DNA of 64,000 nucleotides from a virus, in the IMG/VR virus record IMGVR_UViG_3300029544_000195. The stretch is one strand, 5' to 3'. The notes beneath the pieces are model-generated. The model did no database searches and had not been told where the DNA came from. It worked only from the letters and a program-made list of their open reading frames with translations. The position numbers were made by a program, and so were the translations under genes. This document shows positions 5,200 to 59,300 of the stretch, piece by piece. Position 1 is the stretch's first letter, and each line of letters opens with the position of its first letter.

Positions 5200-5262
5200 T
5201 TTATTAGATATATATAATATGTCTGTTTGCCTTTAATCTAAAGTAGAAATCATATTATGAGC
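5200..5262 (-). promoter_or_regulatory. bipartite phage promoter (minus strand): GCTCATAATATGATTTC ... AAACAGACATATTA
   Basis: Reverse complement matches the bipartite consensus found at 6 other sites. Core at 5215-5225. Confidence 0.5.
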
Positions 5263-5282
5263 ATTTTTTACAGAGTCCGGTG

Positions 5283-5296
5283 GACAGACATATTAA
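5283..5296 (+). promoter_or_regulatory. conserved phage promoter motif GACAGACATATTAA
   Basis: One of ~30 copies. Lies 31 nt upstream of the 5327 start. Confidence 0.5.
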
Positions 5297-5326
5297 TAAT
5301 AGTTTTATACAGAAAGGTGTGATTCT

Positions 5327-6772
5327 ATGAATATCGCAAAAAAAATTGGCAATAATGTCCTGAAAGGACTAAAAAACATCGGGCAAAAGGTGGAATGGTT
5401 TTTCCATAATGTATTTGCTCGAATTGCATTAGGAAAAGATGCATGGAACGAAGCAGCGCGCATCAATATGGAAACCGAAGCGAAAAAGGAATTAAAAGAA
5501 TTTGAACAACAACATCCAAAAGAAGAAGTTCCGGAAGAGCAACAGAAAGTACTTCAAGAAAAAACTTCTGAACAGGAACAAAAAGAGCCGGAATTATCGG
5601 AAAATGAAAGAATTTTACATCGGACGAAAGAAAACTTGGATATGATGGTTGAAAAATTAAATAATTTATATTGCAAACATAAACTGCCGACTCCGGGGAT
5701 TATTTTGGCTCACAACAGAGAAGATGTTTTAAATCTATCAAAAGAAGAAGTTGAAACAGAATTTCAAAAAGCATTCAAGCAAATTGAGAATTCTCCATTA
5801 AAAGAAAAAGAAAAAAATTTATTTTATCGTGGGTTAGGACAATCGCAGGTTTTGCTAAACAGAAAACAAAAATACATGGACAAAGTATTAAACGAAAGCC
5901 ACAAAAACGAGATAAAAGAATCTGAGCATGACCAGCCGGAAATGCAAAAAGAAACTGAATCAGTGATTGATTCGTCCAATAATTTTGAGTCTTTAAATAC
6001 TCAAATAGATGAATTAGAAAAAGATTTACAAGAAAATGAGGAATCTTTTCAGGTTGTTAATTTAAGACCTAAAAAGGAAAATGAGACATTAGAAGAAAAG
6101 AAAGCACGCTTAGGAATTGATGTAATATCCGTACAAGAAACAGAGAAACCTATTCTTACCGGAGAAGATGAGTTAAATGAGATGTTAAAACAGTACAAAC
6201 CTTCTTTGCAAGAAATGAAAACACAATTAATTTTAGCAGCTACACGTGCAGAATCAATGTTAAATGAAATGCCAACAATTGATGCTATTTGCAAAGAAAA
6301 TATTTCTCTATGCGAAAATATTGTGCAACAAAATGTAGCATTAGAGATTTCACGAAATGATGAAAAATATAATATTGGATATGCTGGCAAGGAGATATCT
6401 GTAACCAGAGAGGGTATTATGGCAGGAGATTATGACAATGAGATTGTTGAATTTGGAGCATTTATTTGGGATAAATTAAGTCCGGAAGTAGAGCAAGATG
6501 GCAGTGCACTAGCAGATGCCGGTGATTTACAGGCATTATGTAATTCCGCTGTCGCCTCTAAAGATACTAATAGTATCAGTGAAAAGTCAAATGATATTAA
6601 TGTTTTATCTGGAAATAACATGGACCTTGATGATATGCTTACTCCAGAAACAGAAGTTGAAGACGAAATTAAAAGAGAAAAATTAGATGATTTACTTGAT
6701 AACATTGACAATAGCGGACCGGATGTAGAAAACTCATCGAACGAAATTGATGTTTCTGATATAGCAATTTAA
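5327..6772 (+). CDS. highly acidic Glu/Lys-rich coiled-coil protein (481 aa)
   Basis: Long ORF with RBS. Very low complexity (E/K/D-rich). Driven by the divergent strong promoter. Confidence 0.5.
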   Translation: MNIAKKIGNNVLKGLKNIGQKVEWFFHNVFARIALGKDAWNEAARINMETEAKKELKEFEQQHPKEEVPEEQQKVLQEKTSEQEQKEPELSENERILHRTKENLDMMVEKLNNLYCKHKLPTPGIILAHNREDVLNLSKEEVETEFQKAFKQIENSPLKEKEKNLFYRGLGQSQVLLNRKQKYMDKVLNESHKNEIKESEHDQPEMQKETESVIDSSNNFESLNTQIDELEKDLQENEESFQVVNLRPKKENETLEEKKARLGIDVISVQETEKPILTGEDELNEMLKQYKPSLQEMKTQLILAATRAESMLNEMPTIDAICKENISLCENIVQQNVALEISRNDEKYNIGYAGKEISVTREGIMAGDYDNEIVEFGAFIWDKLSPEVEQDGSALADAGDLQALCNSAVASKDTNSISEKSNDINVLSGNNMDLDDMLTPETEVEDEIKREKLDDLLDNIDNSGPDVENSSNEIDVSDIAI

Positions 6773-6776
6773 AGAA

Positions 6777-6802
6777 AAAAGGCTCTTCAAGGGCCTTTTT
6801 TA
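6777..6802 (+). terminator. rho-independent terminator
   Basis: aaaAGGCtcttcaaGGGCCTttttttat. Confidence 0.5.
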
Positions 6803-6840
6803 TGTTATTAGAAAAAAATAATCCCTTAAAAATTCTTTAT

Positions 6841-6878
6841 AATATGGTTTTTATAATTTTGAAAAACAGACATATTAA
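6841..6878 (+). promoter_or_regulatory. bipartite phage promoter (ATAATATGGTTTTT ... GAAAAACAGACATATTAAA)
   Basis: Same architecture as the copy at 19486-19524. Confidence 0.5.
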
Positions 6879-6908
6879 AGATATAAAATACTTTTTAGGG
6901 GTGTTATT

Positions 6909-9032
6909 ATGGATGTAATGAAAGGAAAATATAATAAATTACTGTATATGGGGCGCGATGGTGTTGCCTATTTTTCTATGTTTGTATCGAAGACGCCACT
7001 ACCTTACGAAAGCACATATAGTACATATATTTGTTCTGGACGAGTCCCGGAATATAATCGTGGGTATCCGCTTACTTTACACGGGCATTGGACGAAATCA
7101 AACAAATGGAAATTTGAAGTTGAATCTTTTGAGGAAGATTTGAAAGAAGGATATGTTTTAGAAGAATATTTAATGCAAATTGATGGAGTCGGGGCTGTTT
7201 CTGCTAAAAAATTAGCGGGAGTTAAAGATATTTGGAATTATGATATTTATAATTCTGAACTTTTAGCAAAAAATACTGGATTATCGAACGACCTTTGCGA
7301 AACAGTAATTTCCACATTAAACAAGCAAAAAGGGCGATATGATTTATATTGTTATTTATGCCAATATGGAATTACTGATATTAAGGTGGATAATATAATT
7401 GAAACTTACGGAAATAAGGCACTACAATATATTAAGGATAATCCATATGATATTCTAAGAAAATACAATACTTCATTCGCTGTTATGGATGAAATTGGCT
7501 TTGCAGCCGGACTTAATTACTATAATTTAGATAGGCTTGACGCTATGCTGCATTATGCTATGGATTTATGTACAAAGGACGGTAGTACTTTTGTTCTTAT
7601 CAATGATTTGATTGAGAAAATGTTATGGATAGCAAAAAAAAGCATCTATGGTGTAGAAATTCCGGATGGCTTTTTAGCAATTGCTCTATCAAATGCAAAT
7701 TGGTTATATGTGGATAAAATAAATGACCGAGTTTACTTAAAAGAATATTGGTATCGAGAATATGATATAGCAAGAGGAATTGCCCGCTTAGAAAATACAA
7801 AAACCGTATTAAACATTTCAAAGAAAGATGTTAACTGGGTAGAAAAGAAATTGAATATTACTTATGCATCTTCTCAAAAAAATGCCTTTAATTTGTTGAA
7901 CAGCACAGGCGTTAAAGTGCTAACCGGCGGCCCCGGAACTGGCAAAACAACACTCATAAATGGAATTTTGACGCTTTACAAAGAAAAGTACCCAGATAAT
8001 AAAATTGCTTTATGTGCACCAACCGGAGTGGCGGGCGAGCATATGGCTGAATCTACGAACTCTCCAGCGTCTACCATACATCGGTTATTAGAATATCAGC
8101 CATTTAGTGATGAAGAAGCATCTTACAAAGATATGGATGACCCAATTGATGCGGATTTTATTATCATGGATGAAACTTCTATGACGGACACTAAGTTGAT
8201 GGGAATGTTTTTTAATGCTATTCAATCTGGAAGTTTAGTTTTATTGTGCGGAGATATTGACCAGTTAGACAGTGTTTGTCCGGGAGCCGTTTTGAGAGAT
8301 ATTATTAATTCTAAAAAAGTTGACGTATATCGCTTAGATACACTTTTCCGCCAAAAACAAGGTTCGACCACGATTATTAACAAGGATAAAATTAAAATAA
8401 AAGACTGTGAGTTAGTTATGGATAATCAATTTCAGATTTTACGATATAATTCTGGCAAAGAAATTGATTCTATCTTAACTACAGTTTTAAAAAAGGAAAA
8501 TAACCCACAAATTTTAACGACCCCAAACAAGGGAGCGGCCGGAGTGTATGCATTGAATCATTTAGTTCAGTCATCTTTTCAGTTTGAAGGAAGAGAAATA
8601 CACCGTAATGGATATGTTTTTCATAAAAACGATAAGATTATGATGATTGTTAATAATTATAAAGCCGGTTATTTTAATGGCGATATTGGAAAAATAATTT
8701 CAATTACTGATGCCGGAACTGTAACGATACAAATTGGAAAGAAAACAATCGTAATGGAGCATACATGGTTAGAAGATATGGTTTTAGCGTATGCCATTAC
8801 AATACATAAATCGCAGGGAAATGAATTTGACACTGCAATTATTGTTTTGCCGCAAAATCCAGAAATTCTTCTTAATAAGCATCTAATATACACGGCAATA
8901 ACGAGAGCCAAATCCAAAGTGATTATTTTATCACAAGGAAATGCACTGGAAAAAGCAATTATGAATGATGCTCGGTTTTCAAAGAAAACAGGACTAAAGG
9001 AAAAAATATGTATAACATGTGATAATGTTTAA
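6909..9032 (+). CDS. recD2: RecD2-like ATP-dependent DNA helicase (SF1B)
   Basis: N-terminal RecD2-type OB region. HhH (VSAKKLAGV). Walker A LTGGPGTGKTTL. Walker B FIIMDETSM. C-terminal YAITIHKSQGNEFDTAII helicase motif. Confidence 0.8.
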   Translation: MDVMKGKYNKLLYMGRDGVAYFSMFVSKTPLPYESTYSTYICSGRVPEYNRGYPLTLHGHWTKSNKWKFEVESFEEDLKEGYVLEEYLMQIDGVGAVSAKKLAGVKDIWNYDIYNSELLAKNTGLSNDLCETVISTLNKQKGRYDLYCYLCQYGITDIKVDNIIETYGNKALQYIKDNPYDILRKYNTSFAVMDEIGFAAGLNYYNLDRLDAMLHYAMDLCTKDGSTFVLINDLIEKMLWIAKKSIYGVEIPDGFLAIALSNANWLYVDKINDRVYLKEYWYREYDIARGIARLENTKTVLNISKKDVNWVEKKLNITYASSQKNAFNLLNSTGVKVLTGGPGTGKTTLINGILTLYKEKYPDNKIALCAPTGVAGEHMAESTNSPASTIHRLLEYQPFSDEEASYKDMDDPIDADFIIMDETSMTDTKLMGMFFNAIQSGSLVLLCGDIDQLDSVCPGAVLRDIINSKKVDVYRLDTLFRQKQGSTTIINKDKIKIKDCELVMDNQFQILRYNSGKEIDSILTTVLKKENNPQILTTPNKGAAGVYALNHLVQSSFQFEGREIHRNGYVFHKNDKIMMIVNNYKAGYFNGDIGKIISITDAGTVTIQIGKKTIVMEHTWLEDMVLAYAITIHKSQGNEFDTAIIVLPQNPEILLNKHLIYTAITRAKSKVIILSQGNALEKAIMNDARFSKKTGLKEKICITCDNV

Positions 9033-9035
9033 AAA

Positions 9036-9067
9036 ATAAGCCGCCCGATATTTCGAGCGGCTTTAAT
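9036..9067. terminator. bidirectional terminator
   Basis: GCCGCccgatatttcgaGCGGCtttaatt between convergent genes. Confidence 0.55.
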
Positions 9068-9069
9068 TA

Positions 9070-9777
9070 TCACCTGATATAAACTTTTTTTGAAAAACGA
9101 TAATAATGATATAAAAAATCACTTCGCAGTTTATGTGGCATTGATTTATGAAATGCTTCAAAAGTATTGGCGTATAGTGTGATAGCGAAAGAATATAACT
9201 TATATTTCTTCATTGCTGCCACTCCTTTTGGCCCGGAGAAATATTGATACATTGCTTCCAAATTTTGAAAGCGTGGCATTTGTGATATTGCATATTGCAA
9301 TAAAACACTAAATCGGCGAACTCCTTCAATTCCACCAATCCAGGTGGATGGAAATTTTGAGGCACTGCCAGTATGAACTCGTTCAAACATAGCAATACAC
9401 TGGTCTTCAATGCTTAACCTGAATTTTTTAGGATATAGAAGATAAGCCAAATAAGTCATATCTAAATCGTCTTTACTATACTCTTGTGGAAAATCAATAT
9501 ATTTATTTACTATCTTAGATAGCTTCATCTTTTTCAATACGTTCGATGTGAGATATCTTCGGATGTCCTGCGGCGTCCATTGCAAATATTTTTCCAAGGC
9601 AAAACGAATAATTTTTAATGCCTGCTCTTGTTTTTGCAGCGGTCCTAAATCAGTAAAATAAGCAACCGGAAAAATATCAGTATTTCCGACATACATTCTC
9701 TCATATTCTTGTAAAATTACTAAATCATGATTAATTGTTACTATGTTGTTGTTACTTTCTTGTAATTTGATATCCAT
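9070..9777 (-). CDS. hypothetical protein (235 aa); lone opposite-strand gene
   Basis: ORF with its own minus-strand motif copy (9824-9834) and RBS. No recognisable domain. Confidence 0.45.
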   Translation of the reverse strand: MDIKLQESNNNIVTINHDLVILQEYERMYVGNTDIFPVAYFTDLGPLQKQEQALKIIRFALEKYLQWTPQDIRRYLTSNVLKKMKLSKIVNKYIDFPQEYSKDDLDMTYLAYLLYPKKFRLSIEDQCIAMFERVHTGSASKFPSTWIGGIEGVRRFSVLLQYAISQMPRFQNLEAMYQYFSGPKGVAAMKKYKLYSFAITLYANTFEAFHKSMPHKLRSDFLYHYYRFSKKVYIR

Positions 9778-9823
9778 AAAACATTACCCGTAGGGGTCTC
9801 CTTTCAAAATAATCCTCTATATT

Positions 9824-9898
9824 TAATATGTCTGTTTTAAAACAAAACGAAAACGATATTATAACAATTTTTTCCTAATTACCAAAACAGACATATTA
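9824..9898. promoter_or_regulatory. divergent pair of phage promoter motifs (minus copy 9824-9834, plus copy 9888-9898)
   Basis: taatatgtctg on the plus strand (minus-strand motif) and cagacatatta. Confidence 0.5.
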
Positions 9899-9935
9899 AA
9901 AATATCAATTATAACAACAAAAAGGAGGAATGAAT

Positions 9936-10436
9936 ATGAATGAATTTACAAAAAATGGAAGAATATTTGTTGATATGGATGGGGTTTTAGCAGAATTTCG
10001 AAAGGGCGTTCCAGAAGAAATGCTTTATCGAAAAGGTTATTTTGCTACTTTACGGCCAATTTCATCAGCCTGTCAGATGTTGAATGTGTTAATTCGGTCA
10101 ATGCCGGAAAATGTTTATATTTTAACATCTTACTTGGAAGATAGTCCTTATGCAAAGAGAGAGAAGCTAATGTGGGCTATGAAATATACGGATATTGACC
10201 CGGAACATATTATTTTTGTTCCTTCATCGGTATCAAAATCAGAGTATGTAGCAGCAACAGAGCTTGATTTGTTGATTGATGATTACGGATTAAATCTTGC
10301 GTGTTGGCACGGTACTCCGGTTAAGTTTGTGAATCCGGTTAATAACACTAAGCGAAAGAAGTATAATCATACTTTGGATTATCGCGATAATCCAATTATG
10401 AATGCGTTTCGTGTTCAGATGTTATTATCTATGTAA
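9936..10436 (+). CDS. 5'(3')-deoxyribonucleotidase (NT5C family, HAD-like)
   Basis: N-terminal IFVDMDGVLAEF matches the NT5C/HAD motif I (DMDGVLADF). Start chosen at the second ATG for RBS spacing. Confidence 0.65.
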   Translation: MNEFTKNGRIFVDMDGVLAEFRKGVPEEMLYRKGYFATLRPISSACQMLNVLIRSMPENVYILTSYLEDSPYAKREKLMWAMKYTDIDPEHIIFVPSSVSKSEYVAATELDLLIDDYGLNLACWHGTPVKFVNPVNNTKRKKYNHTLDYRDNPIMNAFRVQMLLSM

Positions 10437-10450
10437 AGGAGGTCTCGCTT

Positions 10451-10717
10451 ATGGTAGTAAAATCCTATGGAATGGACATAAATATTACTTTTGTCCATCG
10501 AGCAAATGAAATTGATTTAATCGAAGAGTCGATTTCCGGACCACAGTACTTAGGAACTTTGTTTTTGGAAATTGACAACAATGGCATTGGACTTTTAAAT
10601 GCTTTTGACTCTTTATCTCAAAAAGTGGCAAAAACATTAATAGAAGAAGGGCTAATTAAAAAGGCGGAAAAGCAAAATCCATATGCAGTTTATCCGTCTT
10701 ATATCATTAAATTGTAA
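10451..10717 (+). CDS. hypothetical protein (88 aa)
   Basis: AAAGGAGG RBS. Confidence 0.4.
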   Translation: MVVKSYGMDINITFVHRANEIDLIEESISGPQYLGTLFLEIDNNGIGLLNAFDSLSQKVAKTLIEEGLIKKAEKQNPYAVYPSYIIKL

Positions 10718-10728
10718 ATAATTCTATT

Positions 10729-10757
10729 GCCCCGGTATAATGCCGGGGTTTTTCTTT
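10729..10757 (+). terminator. rho-independent terminator
   Basis: GCCCCGGtataatgCCGGGGtttttcttt. Confidence 0.6.
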
Positions 10758-10783
10758 GTAAAATATTTTTATAAATACCAAAA

Positions 10784-10794
10784 CAGACATATTA
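10784..10794 (+). promoter_or_regulatory. phage promoter motif (TACCAAAACAGACATATTAAAA)
   Basis: Motif copy 33 nt upstream of the 10828 start. Confidence 0.5.
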
Positions 10795-10827
10795 AAATTA
10801 TTAAATAAAAAATAGGAGGAAATTATT

Positions 10828-12444
10828 ATGAGTACTTTAAATGTAGTGGAGGTATTATTTAACCATAAACCAGTCGATGTACATTTTCTTAGCAAAAAAA
10901 CATCACAGACAATAACAGTTAGCCCTCAATTTTTATCAGGCAGACATAATCCTGCGTCCCCTGGTGTAAAGATAAGTGGCATTGCCAAGATGTTTGATTA
11001 TTTATATCAAAAAGGCGAACCATGTAGGATGTGTATTTATTTTTCAGCCAAGAATAAAATTGCATATGTTGAATTATCCGTTCCATCTGAAATGATTCAC
11101 AGTTTGATTACGCCAAATGAAGTTCGTGTATATGAAGCTGCCGAATCAATTTCTGAAAAATGGCATTTATTACCACTTATTGCAGTTCAGTGGATGATGA
11201 ATGCGGATTGTTCACTTCTTTCATTTTTAGAAAAAGTTCAAAGTAATATAAGTGCTGTTCAAAATGCAATAGGATTCACTGATGAATTTTATTATTACGG
11301 AAAAGATAAAGGCCTTTTGTCTTCAGTTTCAATTGATTTTGGTAATGCAACCATTTTAGCAGAAGCAAAAAGAGCTTTCCAAAATGGAATGTTTTCCGAA
11401 AAAGCAATAAAATTTGGAGAAATGATATCAGCTCTAGAGCAATATCAAACGAAAAAAGAAACAAATTCATCAAATCAGCAAATTGATTATGAAAAACAAT
11501 GGGAAGAAATCAAAGCTGGAAAATATTTACTGGATTATGAATGGAGAGATGATTTACAAGATTATATCAAACCATTAAGTTTTTTGGATAAATATGTCCC
11601 AGACCGCATGTTTTGGCAATTGTTTCGTATTTTTAAAATACGTACACAAAAAGCACTTACCAGAATAAAAGAAGCTCAAGATGCCGGACTATCATTTCCG
11701 GAGGCACAAAAAGATGATTGTTTAAACATTTTTTTGCATGGCCGCGCCGGTACTGGTAAATCGTACTTATTATACGCATTAAGCGCTGCCTTTGGAATCC
11801 CTGCTCCTTTTACAAACTGTTCAAAGGGAACAGAGGAAGATACGTATGAAGGCATTACAAAAGTTATTGATGGTAAATTAACAGAAATTGAAACATCAAT
11901 GATTAAAGTTTCCCAAAATGGTGGCATGTGGATTGGTGAGGAGTTTGACCTTACTGACCCAGAGGTAAACAAGGGTGTTTTTAATCAATTGACAGAATAT
12001 CCTTATATTGCAATGAAAAGTGGATACAAACCAGTCAAAAGACATCCATTAGCTATTTTCGCAGCCACTTTTAACGTGGGAGAACAAAGCCCTCGTATGG
12101 ACCCGGCGTTATCTTCTCGTTTTGTTCCGTCTTTACGGTTTAAAGACCCAACAAAAGAAGATTTTATTAAACGAATGATAGCTTCCGGAGCCAAAGATGA
12201 TACGGCAAATCAGGTTTATGATGCATATATAAGAATTTTAACTATGCTCAAAGACCCGGATATTAATGGCGAAGAATGTGAGGAATATATTGTTCCTCGT
12301 CTTTGTATTGAAACATGTAATTTAATTGACAAGGACAACTTAGATTTCCGTACAGCGATTGAAATTTGCATGATAAATAAAATCGCAGAAATCAGACCAG
12401 ATGTGGCTGACGAAATTTATGTTGCAATGGATTCATATTTTTAG
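10828..12444 (+). CDS. MoxR/CobS-like AAA+ ATPase with ~290-aa N-terminal extension
   Basis: Walker A FLHGRAGTGKSYLLYAL. Walker B region WIGEEFDL. Adjacent to a vWA partner, the typical MoxR-vWA / phage CobS-CobT arrangement. Confidence 0.65.
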   Translation: MSTLNVVEVLFNHKPVDVHFLSKKTSQTITVSPQFLSGRHNPASPGVKISGIAKMFDYLYQKGEPCRMCIYFSAKNKIAYVELSVPSEMIHSLITPNEVRVYEAAESISEKWHLLPLIAVQWMMNADCSLLSFLEKVQSNISAVQNAIGFTDEFYYYGKDKGLLSSVSIDFGNATILAEAKRAFQNGMFSEKAIKFGEMISALEQYQTKKETNSSNQQIDYEKQWEEIKAGKYLLDYEWRDDLQDYIKPLSFLDKYVPDRMFWQLFRIFKIRTQKALTRIKEAQDAGLSFPEAQKDDCLNIFLHGRAGTGKSYLLYALSAAFGIPAPFTNCSKGTEEDTYEGITKVIDGKLTEIETSMIKVSQNGGMWIGEEFDLTDPEVNKGVFNQLTEYPYIAMKSGYKPVKRHPLAIFAATFNVGEQSPRMDPALSSRFVPSLRFKDPTKEDFIKRMIASGAKDDTANQVYDAYIRILTMLKDPDINGEECEEYIVPRLCIETCNLIDKDNLDFRTAIEICMINKIAEIRPDVADEIYVAMDSYF

Positions 12445-12455
12445 GAGGTGCAATT

Positions 12456-14189
12456 TTGTTTGAAAAAGAATTAAGAAATTTTGAACGTATTTTTCGAGGG
12501 ATAACCGGAAAGCGGTGTGTATGCTTTCCGGAAACACCTCCGGAACTTGGACATACCGATGAAAATGCACATATTTATGTTGCAAAGGACCATGAATATT
12601 ACAAAGGTCTATCTATTGCAGAACAAAAAATGTTTCGGTTGGGAATTTTTACCCACGAAATGCTGCATCAAATTTTTTCTAACTTTTCTTTATTACAAAG
12701 AATGGCAAAAAAATTGGGCGAAAAAGAGTATCGGGTTTTTGCTGAATGTAACAACTTAGTAGAAGATGCCAGTATCGAATTTATGGCATCTAATGTTATT
12801 AAAGGCAAATTATTAAAAGCGTTACAATTCAGCATACAAACAATATATCTTAATACGCCGCAATTGCAGGAAATCCCTTCTCCATATCAACAATTTATTT
12901 GTGCTTTAGTACAATTTGGAGATATGGGAATTTTAAAAGGAGATTTTACTTTCCCGGAATCCAAAGAATGTTTTAATCAAGCAGCTAAATTGTTTGACAA
13001 AGCAGTAGAGAGCCAAAGTACAATTGTAAGAAAAAATTGTGCTGTAAAAATTATGGAAATTGCCAGACCTTTATGGGAGAAGGAAGATTTAGAAGATAAA
13101 TCAAAATCCATTTCAGATTTATTTGGCAGTAGTTCTAAAACCTTAACAAAAGGAGTTTCTTGTTGCGATGGTAAGTCGATTAAAATTCATGAAGATGAAA
13201 CAGAAAATAGCGCATCTGCACGCAGAAAAAAATATTTGAAGAAAAAAACTTCTGGAGCAGATGATAATGATTCGATTCCCGTAATTGCTATTACATCAGA
13301 AGATTTAGACTGGCTTACATCATCAGAAGATTTAGCGGTAAAACGGCAAAGCGAAGAAAAAAAACAAAATCAAGAAGATGCTATAGATAAATCAATTCGA
13401 CCAAACATTTCAGTAGACCGTCTTAGAAATTTAGATGTGGAATGCGGAGTGGAGGAAGAGTACAAAAACCATATGGCAGCTTATCGCCCAATTATAAATT
13501 CTTTTTCAAAAACTTTACAACGCATTTTTCAAAATGATAAAAGTGAAGTTGTAAAAAAGAAAAAAGGGAAATTGAATATTGAGCGATATTATGCTCCTCG
13601 AAAGACTCCTCGAATTTTTGACCGCCGTACTACACCGAAAAATATTAAAGACATGGCGATTACAATTGCAATTGACGAGTCCGGTTCTATGACGGCTGAA
13701 GAAATGGGCAAAAAACGCACTCGAATTGCCAAAGAAGTGGCATTATGTTTCGCAGAAGCTTTTTCTCCATTTAATGTACCATTATATGTCTTTGGTTATC
13801 ATGATGATGTAACACATCATCATTATATTAAATGGCGTAACACAAGAAAAGAACGCACAAAATTACTTGTGTATAATTGTTATGGCTGTAATCATGATGC
13901 AGCAAGCATTAATTATGCAGTTGAATTATTGAAAAGCCGAAAAGAAAAACATAAGCTTTTAATTGTTATTACAGATGGTATTCCATCAATTGGAGAACCA
14001 TTGGACGTGCAGAACGAAGTACGTAAAGCTCGAAAAATGGGATTTGCCGTTTTGGGTGTGGCGATTGGAAATGATGCCACAGAAGCAATAAAAACGATGT
14101 ATGGAAAAGATTTTTTTCATGTTACATCAACAGAGACAGCTTTTAAAAATGTAGCTAAAATCATTTCAAAAATGATTCAATCATGGTAA
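12456..14189 (+). CDS. HExxH metallopeptidase-like + von Willebrand factor A domain protein (DUF2201/CobT-like), TTG start
   Basis: N-terminal FTHEMLHQIF (HExxH). C-terminal vWA with MIDAS IAIDESGSMT and VITDGIP. AGGAGGTG RBS 5 nt before TTG. Confidence 0.6.
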   Translation: MFEKELRNFERIFRGITGKRCVCFPETPPELGHTDENAHIYVAKDHEYYKGLSIAEQKMFRLGIFTHEMLHQIFSNFSLLQRMAKKLGEKEYRVFAECNNLVEDASIEFMASNVIKGKLLKALQFSIQTIYLNTPQLQEIPSPYQQFICALVQFGDMGILKGDFTFPESKECFNQAAKLFDKAVESQSTIVRKNCAVKIMEIARPLWEKEDLEDKSKSISDLFGSSSKTLTKGVSCCDGKSIKIHEDETENSASARRKKYLKKKTSGADDNDSIPVIAITSEDLDWLTSSEDLAVKRQSEEKKQNQEDAIDKSIRPNISVDRLRNLDVECGVEEEYKNHMAAYRPIINSFSKTLQRIFQNDKSEVVKKKKGKLNIERYYAPRKTPRIFDRRTTPKNIKDMAITIAIDESGSMTAEEMGKKRTRIAKEVALCFAEAFSPFNVPLYVFGYHDDVTHHHYIKWRNTRKERTKLLVYNCYGCNHDAASINYAVELLKSRKEKHKLLIVITDGIPSIGEPLDVQNEVRKARKMGFAVLGVAIGNDATEAIKTMYGKDFFHVTSTETAFKNVAKIISKMIQSW

Positions 14190-14197
14190 AGTATTCA

Positions 14198-14225
14198 AAA
14201 AAAGCCCCTTTATGGGGCTTTTTCT
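14198..14225. terminator. bidirectional terminator
   Basis: aaaaaaGCCCCtttatGGGGCtttttct between convergent genes. Confidence 0.6.
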
Positions 14226-15354: not shown

Positions 15355-15896
15355 GATAATTCTCCTTTCTTTTTTTCATATTGTTGATTGATTTCTACAA
15401 AAATAAGTGCGTCTCCACCATTATCCGGATGGTATTTTTTGACCAGTTTTTTGTATTTTCGCATTAAATCTTTTTTCGTATTACATTTGTCAAAATAACC
15501 GGTTAATGTATTAGACGGAACAACATCAACATTCTCTTTTTGATATTGTTTGAAGCGTTGCTGCTTTTTATAGTCTTGCACGGACTCTTTTAATTGCTCA
15601 AAGTACATGATAAACCGCCCTTTAAGGTTTGTTATTTCATCTAATGTATTATAAATTTTTTCTAATTGACGTTTTCTCTTTAATTTTGTAATTAAAGTAC
15701 GTACTTCATCCAGTTTATCTGTTATCCCCTTGTTTGTTTGCATCATTTTGGCGTAAATTGCATCATCCACAACAGCAGATGCCGCTTCTTCAAGATAATC
15801 AACAATTTGATTCCTTAATGCGTTTATTTGCTGAACATCATCATTAAATTCATCAATCAGAGCGTTCTTTTCGGATAATAGGGTATAATTCATCAA
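15351..15896 (-). CDS. J-domain (DnaJ-like) protein
   Basis: C-terminal KKDLMRKYKKLVKKYHPDNGGD (HPD motif). 4-nt ATGA overlap with the downstream AAA+ gene. Confidence 0.6.
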   Translation of the reverse strand: MMNYTLLSEKNALIDEFNDDVQQINALRNQIVDYLEEAASAVVDDAIYAKMMQTNKGITDKLDEVRTLITKLKRKRQLEKIYNTLDEITNLKGRFIMYFEQLKESVQDYKKQQRFKQYQKENVDVVPSNTLTGYFDKCNTKKDLMRKYKKLVKKYHPDNGGDALIFVEINQQYEKKKGELS

Positions 15897-48026: not shown

Positions 48027-48161
48027 CTCCTTAATGCTTGCATGTATCGTGAAACATTTTTCCAATGTATCATGATATGCGTTTGGAACTAATAATCCAT
48101 CTCTTTCGGATAGTTTATTCTGTTATGTCAAGGCGGAAAAGCAAGCACCTTGACAAAACCT

Positions 48162-48233: not shown

Positions 48234-48269
48234 CTGTCCAAATATAATGGACATTACCAATACTTTGGT

Positions 48270-48397: not shown

Positions 48398-48671
48398 TTG
48401 CGCTTCACTTTCTCTAGCGAGGGAGGATAGGAGCGCATAGGACAAACTTCCTGAAGCCGAAATGGTTTAACCAGTCGCAGGTTGGGTCTTGGCAAAAAAC
48501 TGTAACTGTAGAGAGCAAAACAAAGACATTGCGACCAGGTTTTTGCTGGCAGTTATAGACATCTTTAGTGATAACGAGAACTTGCAAAAAGCAAGTCGGG
48601 GAGTTTCAAAGATGTTATTGTTTTCCTTATTTTTTGGGTTGGCCCCCTCTCTTTTTGCGAGAGAGGGGAAT

Positions 48672-48742
48672 GGCGGCTTAGTCAAAAGGCAAGACAATAG
48701 GTTTTCATCCTATGAGTGTGGGTTCGAGTCCCGCAGCCGTCA
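48672..48742 (+). tRNA. tRNA-Glu (anticodon UUC)
   Basis: Acceptor GGCGGCT/AGCCGTC. Anticodon stem ATAGG/CCTAT with loop TTTTCAT. T-arm GTGGG-TTCGAGT-CCCGC. Confidence 0.7.
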
Positions 48743-49305
48743 TTTAAACATGATTATCTCAGTGAAGAAGGAGTTTTCAATCCTGCTGAGACGCATGGTA
48801 ATAAGTTGAATTAATTTGAGATATTGAATTGATTAACAACTTTTATTAAGAAGTGATTCTTGATATGGAGACAGAAACTGTCAACAACGCTGTGTGGTGT
48901 ATCATTATAAAGAGGTCAAAAGCAGAATCCTTGTGGCTGACATAATAGACGCCCGATGTTCGGGAATAATCCGTTGATGTGAGAGGTGTGAGAGACCACG
49001 GACTAAACGGAAATCTCAACAAGTCAGTTTGCCTTGAACCTGAGAAATCAGGGTATAACACAAGAAATTCGTTAAAGTAGCGGTATGGCAGAACTATTAA
49101 ATTTATCTTTTGCTTTATAGAGCAAATAGGAAAAAATAATATTCTCTGAAAGAACCGTGAAATTTGTGGGTATCATTCCCACCCGTGCTTAGACAGTGGT
49201 AAGAAGCCAAGGGTCGCTCCCGAACGCTCAGACTTATCATCACGGTGGCCGAATATGACTGAGTTTATAATGGATAAAGGGAAGCCTTAATCATGTTTAT
49301 TTTTT

Positions 49306-49393
49306 GCAGATATAAGCCTAATTGGTAAGGCAACGCTTTGCTAAAGCGTTAGTAACCGGCAACGGTGTATAGGTTCAAATCCTATTATCTGCG
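49306..49393 (+). tRNA. tRNA-Ser (anticodon GCU), class II with long variable arm
   Basis: Acceptor GCAGATA/TATCTGC. Anticodon stem ACGCT/AGCGT with loop TTGCTAA. Variable arm ACCGGCAACGGT. T-arm ATAGG-TTCAAAT-CCTAT. Confidence 0.75.
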
Positions 49394-49539
49394 TTTGCAT
49401 CACAATAGTGATGTAATAGACCGTTTTAATCTTAGATGGATAAAGATTGTAATGATTTGGCTGTTTTACCAGAACTTAGTTTAGAGCAAGGGGCGCTTCC
49501 GGAAGCGTAAGGTCTCTCTGAATCCATCCAATAACAAGT

Positions 49540-49648
49540 TGATGTGTGGCGGAAAGGAAGACGCAGGAAACCACAAGTACGATGCCAAAGTGAGCCGAAA
49601 GGATATGGACAAAGGCATCATGAGAGGTTCGATTCCTCTCCACATCAA
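49540..49648 (+). ncRNA. tRNA-like element (~109 nt) with expanded body
   Basis: Acceptor TGATGTG/CACATCA. T-arm GAGAGG-TTCGATT-CCTCTC. Internal GATGCC...GGCATC stem. No canonical anticodon arm identified. Confidence 0.3.
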
Positions 49649-49864
49649 GATTCCGGTTCATTACCGGATAAGGCAGGCGTTACGGTAGTCCCTGCTGAAA
49701 TAATTAAAATGCCTGCGTTGGAAGAATATCCAACGCGGGAAACCGTAGGAAATAATAACGAAAAGGAGGTCAAAGGTTTTATTCGTCCAATAATAAAATG
49801 GACAGAGTAACAATGAATTTTAAGAAAGGATAGCGAAAAAGTTTTCGCAAAAAAGGTGATTATT

Positions 49865-50953
49865 ATGGATGTAAATATTAGTATCGGTATGATTATTTTA
49901 GCAGTTATTGTTTTGGTTGTAATCGGTATTATTGTAAAAAATGTGCAGGTGGTTCCTCAATCTTCCTGTCGGATTATTGAACGATTAGGAAAATATAAGG
50001 CAACTTGGCAGGCCGGACTTCATGTAAAAGTCCCATTTATTGATAACGTAGTACGGTATATTACCTTAAAAGAGCAGGTTTTGGATTATCCGCCGCAGAA
50101 TGTTATCACAAAAGATAATGTAACAATGCAGATTGATTCGGTTGTTTATGCAACCATTTTTGACCCTAAGAAATTTACATATGGTGCAGAAGACCCATCT
50201 TCCGGATTACGAAATCTGACGGCAACAACACTTCGAAGCATCATCGGAGAAATGGAATTGGACGAAACGCTCTCGTCAAGAGAAGTTATTAACGGTAAAA
50301 TGCAGAAGATTTTGGATGAAGCAACGGATGCTTGGGGAATTTGCGTCAGTCGCGTAGAAATTAAAAATATTATTCCTCCGGCTGAAATCGAAGAAGTCAT
50401 GACAAAACAGATGCGTGCAGAACGCGAGCGAAGAGAGACATTACTCCAGGCTCAGGCACACAAAGAATCTGTAGTAGCAATGGCGGAAGGAGACCGTCAG
50501 GCTAAAGTGTTAGCCGCTGAAGCAGAAAAAGATGCTGCAATTGCACTGGCAGAAGGCAAGGCTAAGTCAATTAAACTTGTGTATGAGGCAGAGGCAGATG
50601 GTATTCGCATGTTGGCTAATTCGCAGATGAATGACAACGTGCTGCGTTTGAAATCCATTGAAGCAATGAAAGATGTTGCGGATGGACAGGCTACAAAAAT
50701 CTTTATCCCGACAGATTTAAGCCAAAGTATTGCTTCTATGGGAATTTTGGGGGACATGCTTGGTACGGCAGAGCAGAAAACGTCCGATGTATCAAGAGAG
50801 CAGTTGAGAGAAAGCCGGATTCAGGCGAAAACAAATGAGAAATTAGAAAAAGACTCTTGCGTATATGATTTAGAAACTAATGAAATCACACTAAAGGCTG
50901 CTGAATCAAATGCAAAAACATCGTCTGAGTTAAATGAAGATATTTCAAGATAG
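49865..50953 (+). CDS. SPFH/band-7 (stomatin/prohibitin/HflK-C-like) membrane protein
   Basis: N-terminal TM helix. IIERLGKYKATWQAGLHVKVPFID...VTKDNVTMQIDSVVYATI...LRSIIGEMELDETLSSRE fits the SPFH domain. C-terminal coiled-coil tail. Confidence 0.7.
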   Translation: MDVNISIGMIILAVIVLVVIGIIVKNVQVVPQSSCRIIERLGKYKATWQAGLHVKVPFIDNVVRYITLKEQVLDYPPQNVITKDNVTMQIDSVVYATIFDPKKFTYGAEDPSSGLRNLTATTLRSIIGEMELDETLSSREVINGKMQKILDEATDAWGICVSRVEIKNIIPPAEIEEVMTKQMRAERERRETLLQAQAHKESVVAMAEGDRQAKVLAAEAEKDAAIALAEGKAKSIKLVYEAEADGIRMLANSQMNDNVLRLKSIEAMKDVADGQATKIFIPTDLSQSIASMGILGDMLGTAEQKTSDVSREQLRESRIQAKTNEKLEKDSCVYDLETNEITLKAAESNAKTSSELNEDISR

Positions 50954-51174
50954 GAGGTGATTGTATGAATCGGATTAGAGACGAGACTAAAAACAACTCA
51001 TTATAACTTGTGAGTTAAAAAAACAGGATGGTCGCCATCTACTATGTAAAAATATGAGATAATTTTTCGTAAAGCGTTATTTGAAACGCAACGATGTATA
51101 GAGGAAAAAGATAAATCGTTCATAGATGGACGAATGTGGAATTCAACCTTGCATATGCAATACGTGACAGGCGT

Positions 51175-51248
51175 GGCGGTGGAGAGCGATTGGTAGCTCG
51201 CTTAGTGAAATACATTAAGAGGTGTCGGTTCGAGTCCGGCCAACGCCC
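51175..51248 (+). ncRNA. tRNA-like element with non-canonical anticodon arm (9-nt loop or 6-bp stem)
   Basis: Canonical D-arm GAGC-GATTGGTA-GCTC and T-arm GTCGG-TTCGAGT-CCGGC. Acceptor 6/7 bp. Anticodon region CTTAG-TGAAATACA-TTAAG. Confidence 0.3.
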
Positions 51249-51252
51249 TTTT

Positions 51253-51324
51253 GAAAGAGTAGTGTAAAGGTTAAGCGCAACAGTCGGCCACACTGTAGTT
51301 TCGGTTCGATTCCGGACTCTTTCA
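51253..51324 (+). tRNA. tRNA-Gly-like (anticodon GCC) with G33 instead of U33; possible pseudo-tRNA
   Basis: Acceptor GAAAGAG/CTCTTTC. Anticodon stem ACAGT/ACTGT with loop CGGCCAC. T-arm TTCGG-TTCGATT-CCGGA. Confidence 0.4.
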
Positions 51325-51542
51325 TTTTTCTGCTTAGACTATTTTGGTAATCTCGTACGATGAATAGTTGGAAAAACTGTAACTGTGACTAACTATATGA
51401 TAATTACGAGTAAGGCATATAGGCAGTTGCGTGTCTCGGAGTAATATGACAAAGTATTTGGTGACCGGATGCGAGCAGTTTTTAAGAGACATTAAAAAAG
51501 TATGCTAATTCCTGCTTAGGAGGGGAAAAGGAGGATGCGATA

Positions 51543-52538: not shown

Positions 52539-52730
52539 AAACGGCATATATGCAGGCTTTAAGCCTGCTGCCGGTAACGGTTGATTTTGCAATCGAATGG
52601 TGAGGGTGTTATACTACTCGCTAAAGCTTATATTTAATGAAATATAAGCACAAAAAATTACAAGTATTTAACTAAAAAGAGGCTAAGGCTTCTTTTTTTC
52701 TTATATATAGATTTTTTTATGATGAATTAA

Positions 52731-52741
52731 CAGACATATTA
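52731..52741 (+). promoter_or_regulatory. phage promoter motif
   Basis: TTAACAGACATATTAAATAT. Confidence 0.45.
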
Positions 52742-53561: not shown

Positions 53562-53578
53562 GAGAAAAAGAAATATAA

Positions 53579-53589
53579 CAGACATATTA
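53579..53589 (+). promoter_or_regulatory. phage promoter motif
   Basis: ATAACAGACATATTAAAAG. Confidence 0.45.
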
Positions 53590-55406: not shown

Positions 55407-55417
55407 TAATATGTCTT
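55407..55417 (-). promoter_or_regulatory. variant phage promoter motif (AAAAGACATATTATAA) on minus strand
   Basis: Reverse complement reads gcaaaaaagacatattataa. Lies ~30 nt before the RBS/ATG of the 55374 gene. Confidence 0.4.
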
Positions 55418-55448
55418 TTTTGCTATGGCAGAAAAAAACAAGGGCAAA

Positions 55449-55459
55449 CAGACATATTA
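55449..55459 (+). promoter_or_regulatory. phage promoter motif
   Basis: GCAAACAGACATATTAAAAG. Confidence 0.45.
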
Positions 55460-56941: not shown

Positions 56942-56943
56942 TC

Positions 56944-59232
56944 ATGCCTAATAATAAGGAAGAAAGATTACGCGGAATCCGGAAAATGTTTATATTTTGC
57001 GGAGGAATCCTTTATTTATTGCTTTTGTTATTTACCTTACATATGGGCTGTATCAAACCGGAGTATGAAAACAATCCGATAAAGATTATGCAATTAGCAA
57101 TGGAACACATACAAGAAAAGCCGCTTGCTATTTTGCCATTTACGTCATATTCATTTGTTTATCCAATGGTTGGGACTTGTATCTTTGGTATCATAATGTT
57201 ATATGCGTATTTAATGGTAATAAGAAGAGATACAGATAAGGATGCCGGAGGTTCCGCTAAGTGGAATACGGATATGAAGGCGTATAATAAAAAGTATAAT
57301 ACGCCATTTCGTTCGATTAAAACAAATGGAGCAGATAATATAATTTTGGCAAAAGATTTGTATATGTCCATGAACGGAAGCAAAACACGAAGAAACTGTC
57401 ATCAGATTGTTTTCGGAGGGTCCGGTACTGGCAAATCATTTTCGCTTGTTAAGCCAAATGGGTTGCAGATGAATAGCTCCTATGTATTTACTGACCCAAA
57501 AGGAGAATTAACGGAAGCTTTAGCTGGACCATTGGAAGATGCCGGTTATGAAATTAAAATTTTTAACCTTAGTAAAATGTCGGATTCTCTATGCTATAAT
57601 CCGTATGCTTATATTCGAGATGAAAATGGTGTCCGTTCCATGGTAAATTGTATTGTAGAAAATACGCGAAAAGAAGGCACTTCCGGAGGAGACCAGATTT
57701 GGGATGATTCCATGACGGTATTATTACAGGCAATTTCTTTTTACATGATGGAAAAGCTGCCAAAAGAAGAGTGTAATTTATCGACAGCGATGAAATTGAT
57801 TCGTTTGGCAGAAGTGGATGAAAATAATTCTTCTGCGAAATCCGAATTGGATATATTGTTTGATAATTACGAAAAAGCAAATAAAGAAGCCGGTAACCCG
57901 GAAAGTATGGCAACGAAATGTTATAAGGAATTTCGTATTGCATCCGGTAAGACATTGAAATCTGTGTTGATTACAACAATGACTCGATTGAGCGCATTTG
58001 ATTATAGCAATGTAGCTAGTTTATTAAAAAGAGATGAATTGCATTTAGAAGAATTGGGAAGAAAAAAACAGGTTTTGTTTATTATTATTCCTACTGCGGA
58101 TAAGGCATTTAACTTTATTGCTGCTTGTTTGTATACGCAGTTGTTTGAATATTTGTATTATTTAGTAGAAAATATATATCCTCATAGTTATTTTTTACAA
58201 AAGGAAGTAAATGGATTGACGGAAACTTTCTTATGGGGTGAAACGATTGAAGAAGTAAAAGCAAAGAAGAAAATGCTTCAGAGCGCAAAGATTGTCGAAA
58301 AAGAAAATCATTATGAAATTGTCAGTAAAGAAGATATTTTTATTGAACGCTTCCTTAATAAGAAAGCAGCAGAATGGTTTTTAGCTAATGCCGGTGGGAA
58401 AATTGTTCCCGGCGACCGAACGTTACCATATAATATACGTTTTCTATTGGACGAATTTGCGAATGTTGGTAAAATTCCCGGATTTGTTGAAAAAATTGCA
58501 ACGATGCGTTCTTATAAGATGTGGTGTACCATTATCTTGCAGAATCAAAGTCAGTTGAAAAAAATGTGGGATGATGATATGAGTACTATTATTGGAAACT
58601 GCGATACGATGATTTTCCTTGGCAGTCAGGAAAAAGACATGATTGAATATATTCAGGCTATGCTTGGTAAAACAACGAAACGTCAGCAGGGAACTTCTAT
58701 TGGTGGAAAAGGCGGAGGAAACGAGTCTTATAATTATACCGGAACGGATTTGTTAGATTTTAACCAGATTCGTGAAATGGCGGATAATGATTGTATTGTA
58801 TTTATTCGAGGAGAAAAACCTTTTTATACAACAAAATACAATTACACAGAACATCCAAAATATCATTTAACTGGAGACGCTGATAAAGCACTTCGTTATG
58901 AAATTCCATATAATAGTCAACGTGTAATTGATTCTAAAATAGACAAAAAACAATCGCACGATGACAAGGTTGCTCGTTATAAGAAAGAAATCGCGCGAGA
59001 TGAGAAAAAGGTAATTAATGGGCCTAGTTATGAAACTGAGTCAATTTTGAACAAGGTCTGTAATGGAAATCCGGAGCAATTAAAAGAATGTTTGGAACTG
59101 GAACATGAAAACGAAAAGGTTGCGAAAACGGAAACTGAAAAGAAAATAGCAAAAGAAGAAAAAGAAAAATCAGAGAAACTTAAAATTGCTATGCAGGAAC
59201 AGGATGCAAATTTATGGGACATTATGATGTAA
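56944..59232 (+). CDS. VirD4/TraG-like type IV coupling protein (FtsK/T4CP-family ATPase)
   Basis: Two N-terminal TM helices. Walker A VFGGSGTGKSFSL. Walker B/T4CP motif RFLLDEFANVGKIPGF. C-terminal Lys/Glu-rich tail. Confidence 0.65.
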   Translation: MPNNKEERLRGIRKMFIFCGGILYLLLLLFTLHMGCIKPEYENNPIKIMQLAMEHIQEKPLAILPFTSYSFVYPMVGTCIFGIIMLYAYLMVIRRDTDKDAGGSAKWNTDMKAYNKKYNTPFRSIKTNGADNIILAKDLYMSMNGSKTRRNCHQIVFGGSGTGKSFSLVKPNGLQMNSSYVFTDPKGELTEALAGPLEDAGYEIKIFNLSKMSDSLCYNPYAYIRDENGVRSMVNCIVENTRKEGTSGGDQIWDDSMTVLLQAISFYMMEKLPKEECNLSTAMKLIRLAEVDENNSSAKSELDILFDNYEKANKEAGNPESMATKCYKEFRIASGKTLKSVLITTMTRLSAFDYSNVASLLKRDELHLEELGRKKQVLFIIIPTADKAFNFIAACLYTQLFEYLYYLVENIYPHSYFLQKEVNGLTETFLWGETIEEVKAKKKMLQSAKIVEKENHYEIVSKEDIFIERFLNKKAAEWFLANAGGKIVPGDRTLPYNIRFLLDEFANVGKIPGFVEKIATMRSYKMWCTIILQNQSQLKKMWDDDMSTIIGNCDTMIFLGSQEKDMIEYIQAMLGKTTKRQQGTSIGGKGGGNESYNYTGTDLLDFNQIREMADNDCIVFIRGEKPFYTTKYNYTEHPKYHLTGDADKALRYEIPYNSQRVIDSKIDKKQSHDDKVARYKKEIARDEKKVINGPSYETESILNKVCNGNPEQLKECLELEHENEKVAKTETEKKIAKEEKEKSEKLKIAMQEQDANLWDIMM

Positions 59233-59234
59233 GA

Positions 59235-59266
59235 AAAAGGAGCCTGAAAAGGGCTCTTTTTTTTCT
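59235..59266 (+). terminator. rho-independent terminator
   Basis: aaaaaGGAGCCtgaaaaGGGCTCtttttttt. Confidence 0.6.
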
Positions 59267-59289
59267 TGTTTGTTTTTAGGGTGGGCTAA

Positions 59290-59300
59290 CAGACATATTA
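59290..59300 (+). promoter_or_regulatory. phage promoter motif
   Basis: CTAACAGACATATTAATAT. Confidence 0.45.

Follow-up and report, generated by a model that had tools for sequence, protein, structure and literature searches.

The DNA analysed here is a 64,000-nt stretch (IMG/VR virus record IMGVR_UViG_3300029544_000195), hereafter the window, which, judged by its gene content and its junction, represents ~62 kb at the attL side of a very large integrative conjugative element (ICE) whose insertion site is a tRNA-Glu gene. This text concerns a short sequence, CAGACATATTA, that recurs between the genes of this element in 30 exact copies, 27 on the plus strand and 3 on the minus strand. An earlier note on the window had listed these copies, and all 30 were recovered at their positions, together with a minus-strand variant at 55407 that proved real. 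Dinucleotide-preserving shuffles gave a mean of 0.08 copies (maximum 1), which bears out the enrichment over shuffled sequence.

The repeated motif and its sites

Alignment of the copies gives an invariant core of 12 nt, ACAGACATATTA, in 30/30 copies. Counting the C of the core as 0, an A stands at -2 in 25/30 copies; the 13-nt motif described before (AACAGACATATTA) is thus valid for 25 copies, the invariant unit really being the 12-mer. Conservation continues downstream of the core, with a T at +15 in 27/30 copies and a purine at +16 in 30/30 (A in 25, G in 5), a feature absent from the earlier description. Only one copy in the window differs from the core by a single mismatch (AAAGACATATTA, 55407-55418 on the minus strand). 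It stands ahead of a minus-strand gene and looks functional, and with it the copies number 31. Matches with two mismatches (13 in the window) lie mostly within called open reading frames (ORFs) and have neither the T-purine at +15/+16 nor the A-rich 5' flank. ACAGACATATTA has no dyad symmetry.

All 31 copies fall in the 16% of sequence outside features, although ORFs (our own calls) and RNA genes fill 84% of positions 5,000-59,400. The intergenic placement claimed before therefore holds, and occurrence at an equal frequency in coding sequence was not seen. All 31 are also co-oriented with the next feature, ORF or RNA gene, on the same strand. The distance from the motif end to the start codon is 19-121 nt (median about 37), a wider range than the 19-50 nt first given, and two copies precede not an ORF but a cluster of tRNA genes and a ROOL RNA gene, 188 and 100 nt away.

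Sites in the window (position, strand, arrangement, what follows)
1880-1908, plus: canonical sigma-A-type promoter TTGACT-17-TATAAT, ahead of the 59-aa ORF 1947-2126 at the element's left end
5215-5226, minus: core ahead of the minus-strand operon 5196-3827 (89 aa, 104 aa, DUF1848)
5246-5261, minus: upstream block CTCATAATATGATTTC of the 5215 site, its offset 5 nt longer than elsewhere
5284-5295, plus: core; 481-aa ORF at 5327
6866-6877, plus: core with upstream block (TATAAT 6838-6843); RecD2-like helicase
9824-9835, minus: core with upstream block (about 9849-9867); 235-aa ORF 9777-9070
9887-9898, plus: core; NT5C-like ORF at 9930/9936
10783-10794, plus: core right behind a terminator; AAA_5/VWA pair
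17379-17390, minus: core with upstream block (about 17404-17422); 499-aa protein with DxD motif and helix-turn-helix (HTH), DnaJ-like protein, AAA protein
17574-17585, plus: core, 19 nt ahead of the MobV-VirB11 fusion gene
19512-19523, plus: core with upstream block TGTTATAATATGG (19482-19494)
20343-20354, plus: core with a shifted TATGATTTT variant upstream
20807-20818, plus: core behind a terminator
21415-21426, plus: core behind a terminator
22060-22071, plus: core with a shifted TATGATTTT variant; HD-domain gene
22724-22735, plus: core with terminator and upstream block (22692-22710); 100-aa ORF, UvrD
25791-25802, plus: core; glucosaminidase gene
26904-26915, plus: core with a degenerate block (CTTATAATAACGATTC)
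28320-28331, plus: core behind a terminator; homology with the relative L125 ends exactly at its 5' edge
31880-31891, plus: core with upstream block (31848-31866)
33989-34000, plus: core behind a terminator
36913-36924, plus: core behind a terminator
38211-38222, plus: core behind a terminator
39155-39166, plus: core behind a terminator
42851-42862, plus: core behind a terminator
44835-44846, plus: core with a degenerate block (CTTTATAATGGGATTTT)
47581-47592, plus: tandem core 1, behind a terminator; tRNA/ROOL cluster
47669-47680, plus: tandem core 2 with upstream block (47637-47655), 100 nt ahead of tRNA-Ile
52730-52741, plus: core behind a terminator; metallophosphoesterase-like gene
53578-53589, plus: core; 320-aa ORF
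55407-55418, minus: one-mismatch variant; primase-zinc-finger ORF 55374-54673
55448-55459, plus: core; 482-aa ORF, VirD4-type coupling protein
59289-59300, plus: core behind a terminator; adhesin of >1540 aa with leucine-rich repeats (LRRs) and Listeria-Bacteroides repeats, running off the window

A clear hairpin with a T-run lies directly upstream of about 13/30 window copies, 10-25 nt before the motif, leaving no room there for another promoter. In the 52 non-redundant sites obtained by pooling those of the window and its relatives, the count is 22/52, so that the statement that the copies usually follow a terminator was too strong. Terminators are enriched in the region (28 versus 10.2 in shuffles). 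The position of the motif ahead of tRNA and ROOL RNA genes indicates that the signal is transcriptional and not translational, and Rfam gave no family match at motif sites. Standing behind terminators and ahead of RNA genes, strictly co-oriented and free of Rfam matches, the sites argue that the motif is itself the promoter and would act on DNA. An asymmetric 12-mer that is co-oriented in every case also points to asymmetric recognition by a polymerase.

Geometry of the probable promoter and the upstream block

Among the non-redundant sites, the T at core +15 is present in 49/52 and the purine at +16 in 52/52. If this purine is taken as +1, CATATT is predicted to occupy -12 to -7, with a G at -14, an invariant ACA at -17 to -15 and an A at -6. 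As in extended -10 promoters of the sigma-70 family, an A was found at -11 and a T at -7, 6-7 nt ahead of the purine that is the predicted start, and the layout fits a -35-independent promoter of this family and type. The G of a TG at -15/-14 is invariant, but -15 is an invariant A; the orthologous promoter of the relative L121 has TG. Extended -10 sigma-A promoters of Firmicutes (TGnTATAAT) likewise work independently of a -35, with G at -14, A at -11, T at -7 and a start 6-7 nt after the hexamer. Compared with them, the motif has A for T at -15 and C for T at -12, and its invariance extends to the upstream ACA and to the A at -6. L121 has a canonical extended -10, TGGTAT(A/T)CTAT, in 8 copies at corresponding places.

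A TTGACA-like -35 was not found at 16-18 bp. Only T-richness is seen there, contributed mostly by terminator tails or the upstream block, and it fades in the 15 sites with neither. The motif would make a poor housekeeping promoter because CATATT matches TATAAT at 4/6 positions, with C at -12 and neither TG nor -35, which agrees with the earlier view that this is not a sigma-A promoter. Sites of the sigma-70 consensus type are no more frequent in the region than in shuffles (86 versus 89.6). The sigma-A promoter that had been proposed at 1880-1908 is real and separate from the motif, as an entry point of its own, and a host-type promoter with TTGACA lies in the chromosomal DNA beyond attR. At the relaxase-fusion gene, the promoter of L121 (66% identical) is a canonical TGgTATTCT extended -10, 8 nt before GGAGG and at the same distance from the ribosome-binding site as the window's 17574 motif, and that of L124 (72%) has AGTCATACT.

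Part of the sites carry a second conserved block upstream, with the consensus tttt(g/c)(c/t)T(C/T)ATAATATG(G/A)TTTTc and the short form TCATAATATGA. The earlier note had described it at seven sites. It is real, and nine window sites have (T/C)ATAAT exactly at -29 to -24 from the C of the core; in addition, one copy (5215, minus strand) lies 5 nt farther out and three sites have shifted TATGATTTT variants. In 19/52 non-redundant sites the block hexamer is exactly 33 bp upstream of CATATT, the intervening sequence being variable, and the block almost never occurs without the motif. Several copies read TGnTATAAT, the host-type extended -10 form. Many hold a small dyad, TCATA-A-TATGA, whose centre lies about 41 bp before the predicted start, the position at which sites of class II activators are centred. 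The TAATATG of the block is the reverse complement of CATATTA in the core. The block looks like either a host sigma-A-type -10 or a regulator site centred near -41. The fixed 33-bp spacing favours the regulator site, whereas an independent host-type early promoter is favoured by the copies that read TGnTATAAT and by the occurrence of the block at a sigma operon (see below).

Relatives, candidate sigma factors and competing readings

Relatives of the element were found through the relaxase fusion and its 499-aa neighbour. Near-identical versions, with about 83-97% DNA identity over common segments, are present in human-gut metagenome contigs, one of them of 403 kb. In the stretch common to the window and L125, 14/14 window copies are exact (0/168 changes) against 5-7% divergence in the flanks, a comparison from which selection on the core is evident. 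We also scanned one genome per species (185,579 genomes) with a composite pattern of 19 bases, ATAATAT-N20-ACAGACATATTA. This yielded 22 stretches, nine from Clostridium sp. AF37-5 and 13 with single matches in unrelated genomes or metagenome-assembled genomes (MAGs), AF37-5 being the only species genome with multiple matches. One AF37-5 stretch is 97% identical to window 6540-14224, and eight, non-homologous to the window, hold 24 further exact 12-mers, all but one on the plus strand. This isolate is a cultured host carrying a close relative of the element. Among the 13 others, an uncultured Clostridia MAG (L145), 95% identical to window 47222-49090, has two 12-mer copies.

The composite pattern had 0 matches in IMG/VR and a 15-base motif only single chance matches there, while window 1-5,200 and the host DNA beside attR are both free of the 12-mer. 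Within the sequence scanned (these two stretches, the species genomes and IMG/VR) the promoters thus keep to the element. No relative was returned when GTDB was scanned with the relaxase fusion. More distant relatives (L121, L122 and L124, with 64-72% relaxase identity) have repeated promoter-like motifs of their own in place of ACAGACATATTA: the extended -10 form given above, eight times ahead of operons, in L121; TAACATACCTAT four times and an operator-like direct repeat, aatCAGACAT-N8-AAGACAT, three times in L122; and AGTCATACTATA and ATAGACATAATAT in L124.

Pfam detected no sigma or RNA-polymerase families in the window (about 78 ORFs). Sigma-like ORFs were located by phmmer with an approximate E. 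coli RpoE query and then confirmed by Pfam, and the part of the AF37-5 element that does not overlap the window encodes two such proteins near its integrase end, of 291 aa and 173 aa (sigma291 and sigma173 below). The sigma genes thus come from close relatives of the same element, not from the window. Sigma291 (L147/L155) matches Sigma70_r4_2 (3.4e-9) and Sigma70_r4 (1.6e-8) above Pfam thresholds, and its residues 6-248 align with solved group-3 sigmas (a 256-aa sigma, 8x6g_H; FliA; sigma-F). It belongs to only two clusters among 5.8 billion proteins, and plasmid or phage records contain nothing closer than 28% identity. Its AlphaFold model, built from a 2-sequence alignment, was poor (predicted local distance difference test score, pLDDT, 53) and was not used. 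Sigma173 gives weak region-2 and region-4 matches, and its nearest solved relative is a sigma-H. Sigma291 is encoded by the third gene of an operon; ahead of this operon lie the upstream block and, in tandem, two copies of the motif (L155 8763, 8807), a double arrangement that also stands ahead of the tRNA/ROOL cluster of the window. Of the genes that the earlier note proposed to look for elsewhere in the genome, a sigma factor or split beta/beta'-like polymerase subunits, sigma-70-family genes were present in relatives, whereas neither the window nor 64 kb of a close relative yielded beta/beta'-like genes.

Other factors were considered and rejected. The 499-aa protein, with its DxD N-terminal domain and weak LuxR/GerE HTH, was not retained as a sigma. 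Among consensus sequences of sporulation and other alternative sigmas of the host, compared by eye, only a sigma-G-like CATnnTA overlaps the motif, without a matching -35. Sigma-54, extracytoplasmic function and T7-like geometries either did not fit the spacing or had no corresponding gene.

We consider it probable that the 12-mer forms the core of a promoter specific to the element, which is read with an element-encoded sigma and defines a private regulon. Host core RNA polymerase would read the motif promoters with this sigma. CATATT would serve as the -10 hexamer, the invariant ACAGA would lie in the extended -10/region-3 contact zone, no -35 would be needed, and transcription would start at the purine 6 nt after the hexamer, 17 nt past the first base of the 12-mer. 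The best candidate would be the lineage-restricted, group-3 sigma291, with the sigma-like sigma173 as the alternative, and the window's own element would carry the sigma gene beyond base 64,000. The upstream block may provide a factor-independent or regulated entry into the programme, which positive feedback would then sustain. The general idea of a non-sigma-A promoter put forward before is supported by these data, and the element very probably brings its own specificity factor.

Phage middle and late promoters are read with phage sigmas, such as T4 gp55 (TATAAATA) and SPO1 gp28 and gp33/34. Like the motif, they are short, conserved and centred on the -10, with little or no -35, and are repeated before most late units; host core polymerase with an element-encoded sigma is common to them and to what is predicted here. 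The present element differs in being conjugative and without virion genes, and its candidates are group-3-like or small and sigma-H-like, not gp55-like. Closer to it is SigN (ZpdN) of the B. subtilis plasmid pBS32, a sigma-70-family factor encoded by a mobile element whose cognate promoters are essentially confined to that element and head many operons. The SigN regulon is confined to pBS32, sigN itself has SigA-dependent promoters and a SigN-dependent one, and SigN promoters have a clear -35, TTTACG, with a -10 AGATATAA (PMC6751061). The dual promoters of sigN, host-type and own with positive feedback, match the block and two motifs before the sigma291 operon. Here, in contrast, the -10 is extended over 12 bases without a -35, the element is integrated and not a plasmid, the non-redundant sites number at least 52, and the dependence of the promoters on the sigma is a predicted one. 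Private promoters served by an element-encoded sigma are familiar from phages, and pBS32 is a documented case. The searched literature had no match for the motif itself and nothing similar among ICE papers, and as far as it shows, an ICE that combines a lineage-restricted sigma with 52 or more identical promoters lacking a -35 is undescribed.

Several points weigh against a private sigma regulon. The start site at the +16 purine is a prediction, and with 30 exact copies against 1 variant the 12 positions are kept more strictly than in most sigma regulons, a pattern that a further DNA-binding protein or a polymerase of the single-subunit kind would fit as well. The 64-kb window contains no sigma gene, the link running through relatives that are 89-97% identical over the parts in common. 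Homologues of sigma291 with usable flanks are all 96-100% identical and have the same motif, giving no covariation contrast, while the sole divergent homologue (54%) lies on a 1.5-kb contig with almost no intergenic sequence. The two sigma candidates are separated only by the region-3-length linker in sigma291. Finally, two independent promoters would not need the fixed 33-bp offset of the block.

The alternative that survives best, although we hold it unlikely, is a host sigma-A promoter with a built-in operator. The host housekeeping holoenzyme would use CATATT with the G at -14, and the extra invariant bases would bind an element-encoded global regulator, either an activator or a repressor by which the integrated element is silenced. 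The sigma-70-like geometry would suit it, as would a 12-nt invariance beyond the constraint that a sigma usually imposes, and the L122 direct repeat CAGACAT-N8-AAGACAT, downstream of a different -10-like repeat, resembles an operator. Candidate DNA-binding proteins are the 499-aa protein, through its C-terminal LuxR/GerE-like HTH, and the product of the small ORF that follows 1880-1908. A parallel exists in the KorA/KorB operators of IncP plasmids, palindromes to which dimeric repressors bind, where one short sequence likewise overlaps the core promoter at most promoters of a conjugative element. The 12-mer, however, lacks symmetry and faces the downstream gene at each of the 31 sites, it is weak as a sigma-A promoter (4/6 hexamer with C at -12, no TG, no -35), and the element family has sigma genes of which one is lineage-restricted like the motif.

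It is improbable, to a clearly greater degree, that the copies are kept identical mainly as recombination junctions for cassette swapping, through homologous or site-specific exchange between promoter modules, a role compatible with promoter function and one proposed for the promoter-stem-loop modules of T4-type phages. The one large indel between the window and L125 is a 1.5-kb block of small genes that L125 lacks (window 26782-28319 versus L125 593-682), and its right breakpoint is exactly the 5' edge of the core at 28320. There the core and downstream sequence are kept in L125, and the upstream flank is entirely different, with a terminator in one and the block in the other. This hints that cargo cassettes may be exchanged at promoter modules, and the 19-47 kb region is indeed made of small, individually promoted and terminated ORFs. 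Nevertheless this is a single breakpoint, the other indel (20934-21070) lies away from any motif, 12 nt is short for homologous recombination, and no recombinase is tied to the motif.

Very unlikely in our view is a non-sigma polymerase encoded by the element, whether of the multisubunit AR9/PhiKZ type, YonO-like or T7-like and single-subunit. The 12-nt invariance and the fixed start dinucleotide recall promoters of phage polymerases, and the element is seen in part only (window and about 64 kb of a relative). The earlier note had compared the motif with late promoters of phage AR9, whose consensus is AACA-N6-T-(A/G), the last base being the start site (PMC5312081). The likeness lies in the AACA start, the fixed T-purine spacing, the dozens of copies and some genes with both promoter types (PMC5312081, PMC5449584). 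The AR9 consensus is nonetheless not matched: AACA is present in 25/30 copies and missing from 5/30, the position of the published A/G start is here an invariant T, and the start predicted for the motif lies 7 nt further downstream. The fit had looked better than it is because the consensus was taken to end in TW. An own phage-type polymerase is not borne out either, with no split beta/beta' genes and no RNA-polymerase families in about 150 ORFs (the window and 71 AF37-5 ORFs, for the latter among 25/43 matched families listed). Phage genes and evidence of uracil DNA are likewise lacking, the gene content is conjugative, and the composite pattern is missing from IMG/VR.

Least credible of all is an element at the RNA level (a 5' leader, a processing site or a loading site for an antitermination factor, with transcripts beginning upstream or reading through terminators), since, even though the TATAAT-like hexamer 33 bp upstream in 19/52 sites would put the motif into the transcript and the motif is always sense-oriented ahead of genes, 33/52 sites have no block, many lie directly behind strong terminators, tRNA and ROOL genes are also preceded, Rfam has no match at the motif, and a pyrimidine-purine step 6 nt from a -10-like hexamer is a signature of initiation at the DNA level.

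Returning to the private sigma regulon, it may form part of a broader picture that we put forward as doubtful taken as a whole: a >130-kb conjugative element of gut Clostridia in which host-type entry promoters would lead to a private -35-independent sigma, and this to at least 50 identical promoters of tRNA/ROOL, replication and anti-defence genes, whose cores would double as cassette-exchange junctions. If a private regulon is confirmed, a conjugative element would gain a sigma/promoter system documented so far for phages and pBS32. It would offer a handle on the timing of expression of small, probably anti-defence cargo, of the ROOL RNA and of the tRNAs, and a candidate orthogonal sigma/promoter pair for engineering gut Clostridia. 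The pattern ACAGACATATTA-N4-T-purine would serve as a simple tag that delimits the element and each of its transcription units.

The element and its cargo

Other features of the window
1600-1672, plus: tRNA-Glu(CTC) (Rfam/ARAGORN); the attL feature spans 1600-1683
17605-19476: fusion of a MobV relaxase and a VirB11-type ATPase (Pfam/NCBIfam)
47781-51325: six tRNAs (Rfam/ARAGORN), Ile-TAT, Asn, Gln, Glu-TTC, Ser-GCT and Gly-GCC
48734-49308: full-length ROOL RNA (Rfam, 389.7 bits), inside the tRNA cluster
56944-59232: VirD4/TraG coupling protein (Pfam/NCBIfam)
59381-64000: surface adhesin of >1,540 aa with BspA-type LRRs and Listeria-Bacteroides repeats, running off the window end

The 3' 37 nt of tRNA-Glu (window 1647-1683) recur beside the integrase gene in relatives (L155 20425-20460, L154 6239-6274; 92% identity), where ordinary chromosomal genes follow the att repeat after the 403-aa tyrosine integrase. 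GTAATCAAAA repeats, probable arm-type sites, adjoin both tRNA-Glu copies. A promoter module is also common to both ends (window 5215-5299 and L155 17955-18034, ahead of the integrase operon), and together with the att repeat it indicates that both ends belong to one element type. The marks of an ICE are the MobV-VirB11 fusion and VirD4/TraG in the window, PrgI, Mob_Pre and Phage_integrase in the relatives, and the 37-nt repeat at both ends. The families that Pfam, NCBIfam and PHROGs reported for the window and the blocks of AF37-5 include no virion genes, and megablast of 10 kb from the window against GenBank phages gave no match. With its conjugation genes and its attL in tRNA-Glu, the element is therefore not the jumbo phage that had been suggested. 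Judging from the parts seen, it must exceed roughly 130 kb, the window and about 64 kb of a relative covering about half of it.

Besides the conjugation genes, Pfam/NCBIfam families in the window include RecD2 and UvrD helicases, the AAA_5/VWA pair, a cell-wall glucosaminidase, a primase-type zinc finger and an SPFH protein, and its small genes include RadC, SocA/Panacea, YodL, DUF1653 and an HD-domain protein. The AF37-5 blocks, with an ENA contig joining three of them, add PrgI, a ParM-like actin, a second Mob_Pre relaxase, a DNA methylase, a Tad4-like anti-Thoeris protein, SSB, RecJ, a type IA topoisomerase, a 1,317-aa DNA polymerase III alpha and the tyrosine integrase. L155 13981-17934 and 6466-8600, with L146/L147, carry Pol III alpha, topoisomerase (split or frameshifted in L155), SSB, RecJ, the ParM-like actin and a signal peptidase. 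Judged by these genes, the relatives of the element are unusually replication-autonomous for an ICE.

The 623-aa fusion protein joins a MobV/Mob_Pre domain (about residues 34-184) to a VirB11/TadA-type secretion ATPase, and the fusion is kept in the closest ~15 metagenomic homologues among the matches listed (63-97% identity). The 499-aa protein (15853-17352, minus strand) has invariant DxDY and EYGNQFRLIY-like motifs and a weak C-terminal LuxR/GerE HTH, and its N-terminal domain is possibly a primase-polymerase or Rep domain. Its gene always lies beside DnaJ-like and AAA ATPase genes and is divergent from the relaxase gene. The >1,540-aa surface protein is probably the element's mating adhesin. 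The 59-aa ORF, just inside attL, has a TTG start and no family match, and it could encode a small DNA-binding regulator of the element.

The tRNA/ROOL cluster appears, from its two tandem motif copies, to be transcribed from two element promoters. By ARAGORN/Rfam coordinates, the two ends of the ROOL RNA share a few bases with tRNA-Glu and tRNA-Ser. Positions 19500-47300 form a same-strand run of small ORFs, each with its own promoter and terminator, that encode RadC, SocA/Panacea, YodL, DUF1653, DUF551 and many unknown proteins. Relatives carry a Tad4-like anti-Thoeris gene (L146 2924-3526) and an AcrVA2-like gene (L121 14558-15475). The content of the run is consistent with an anti-defence or establishment region.

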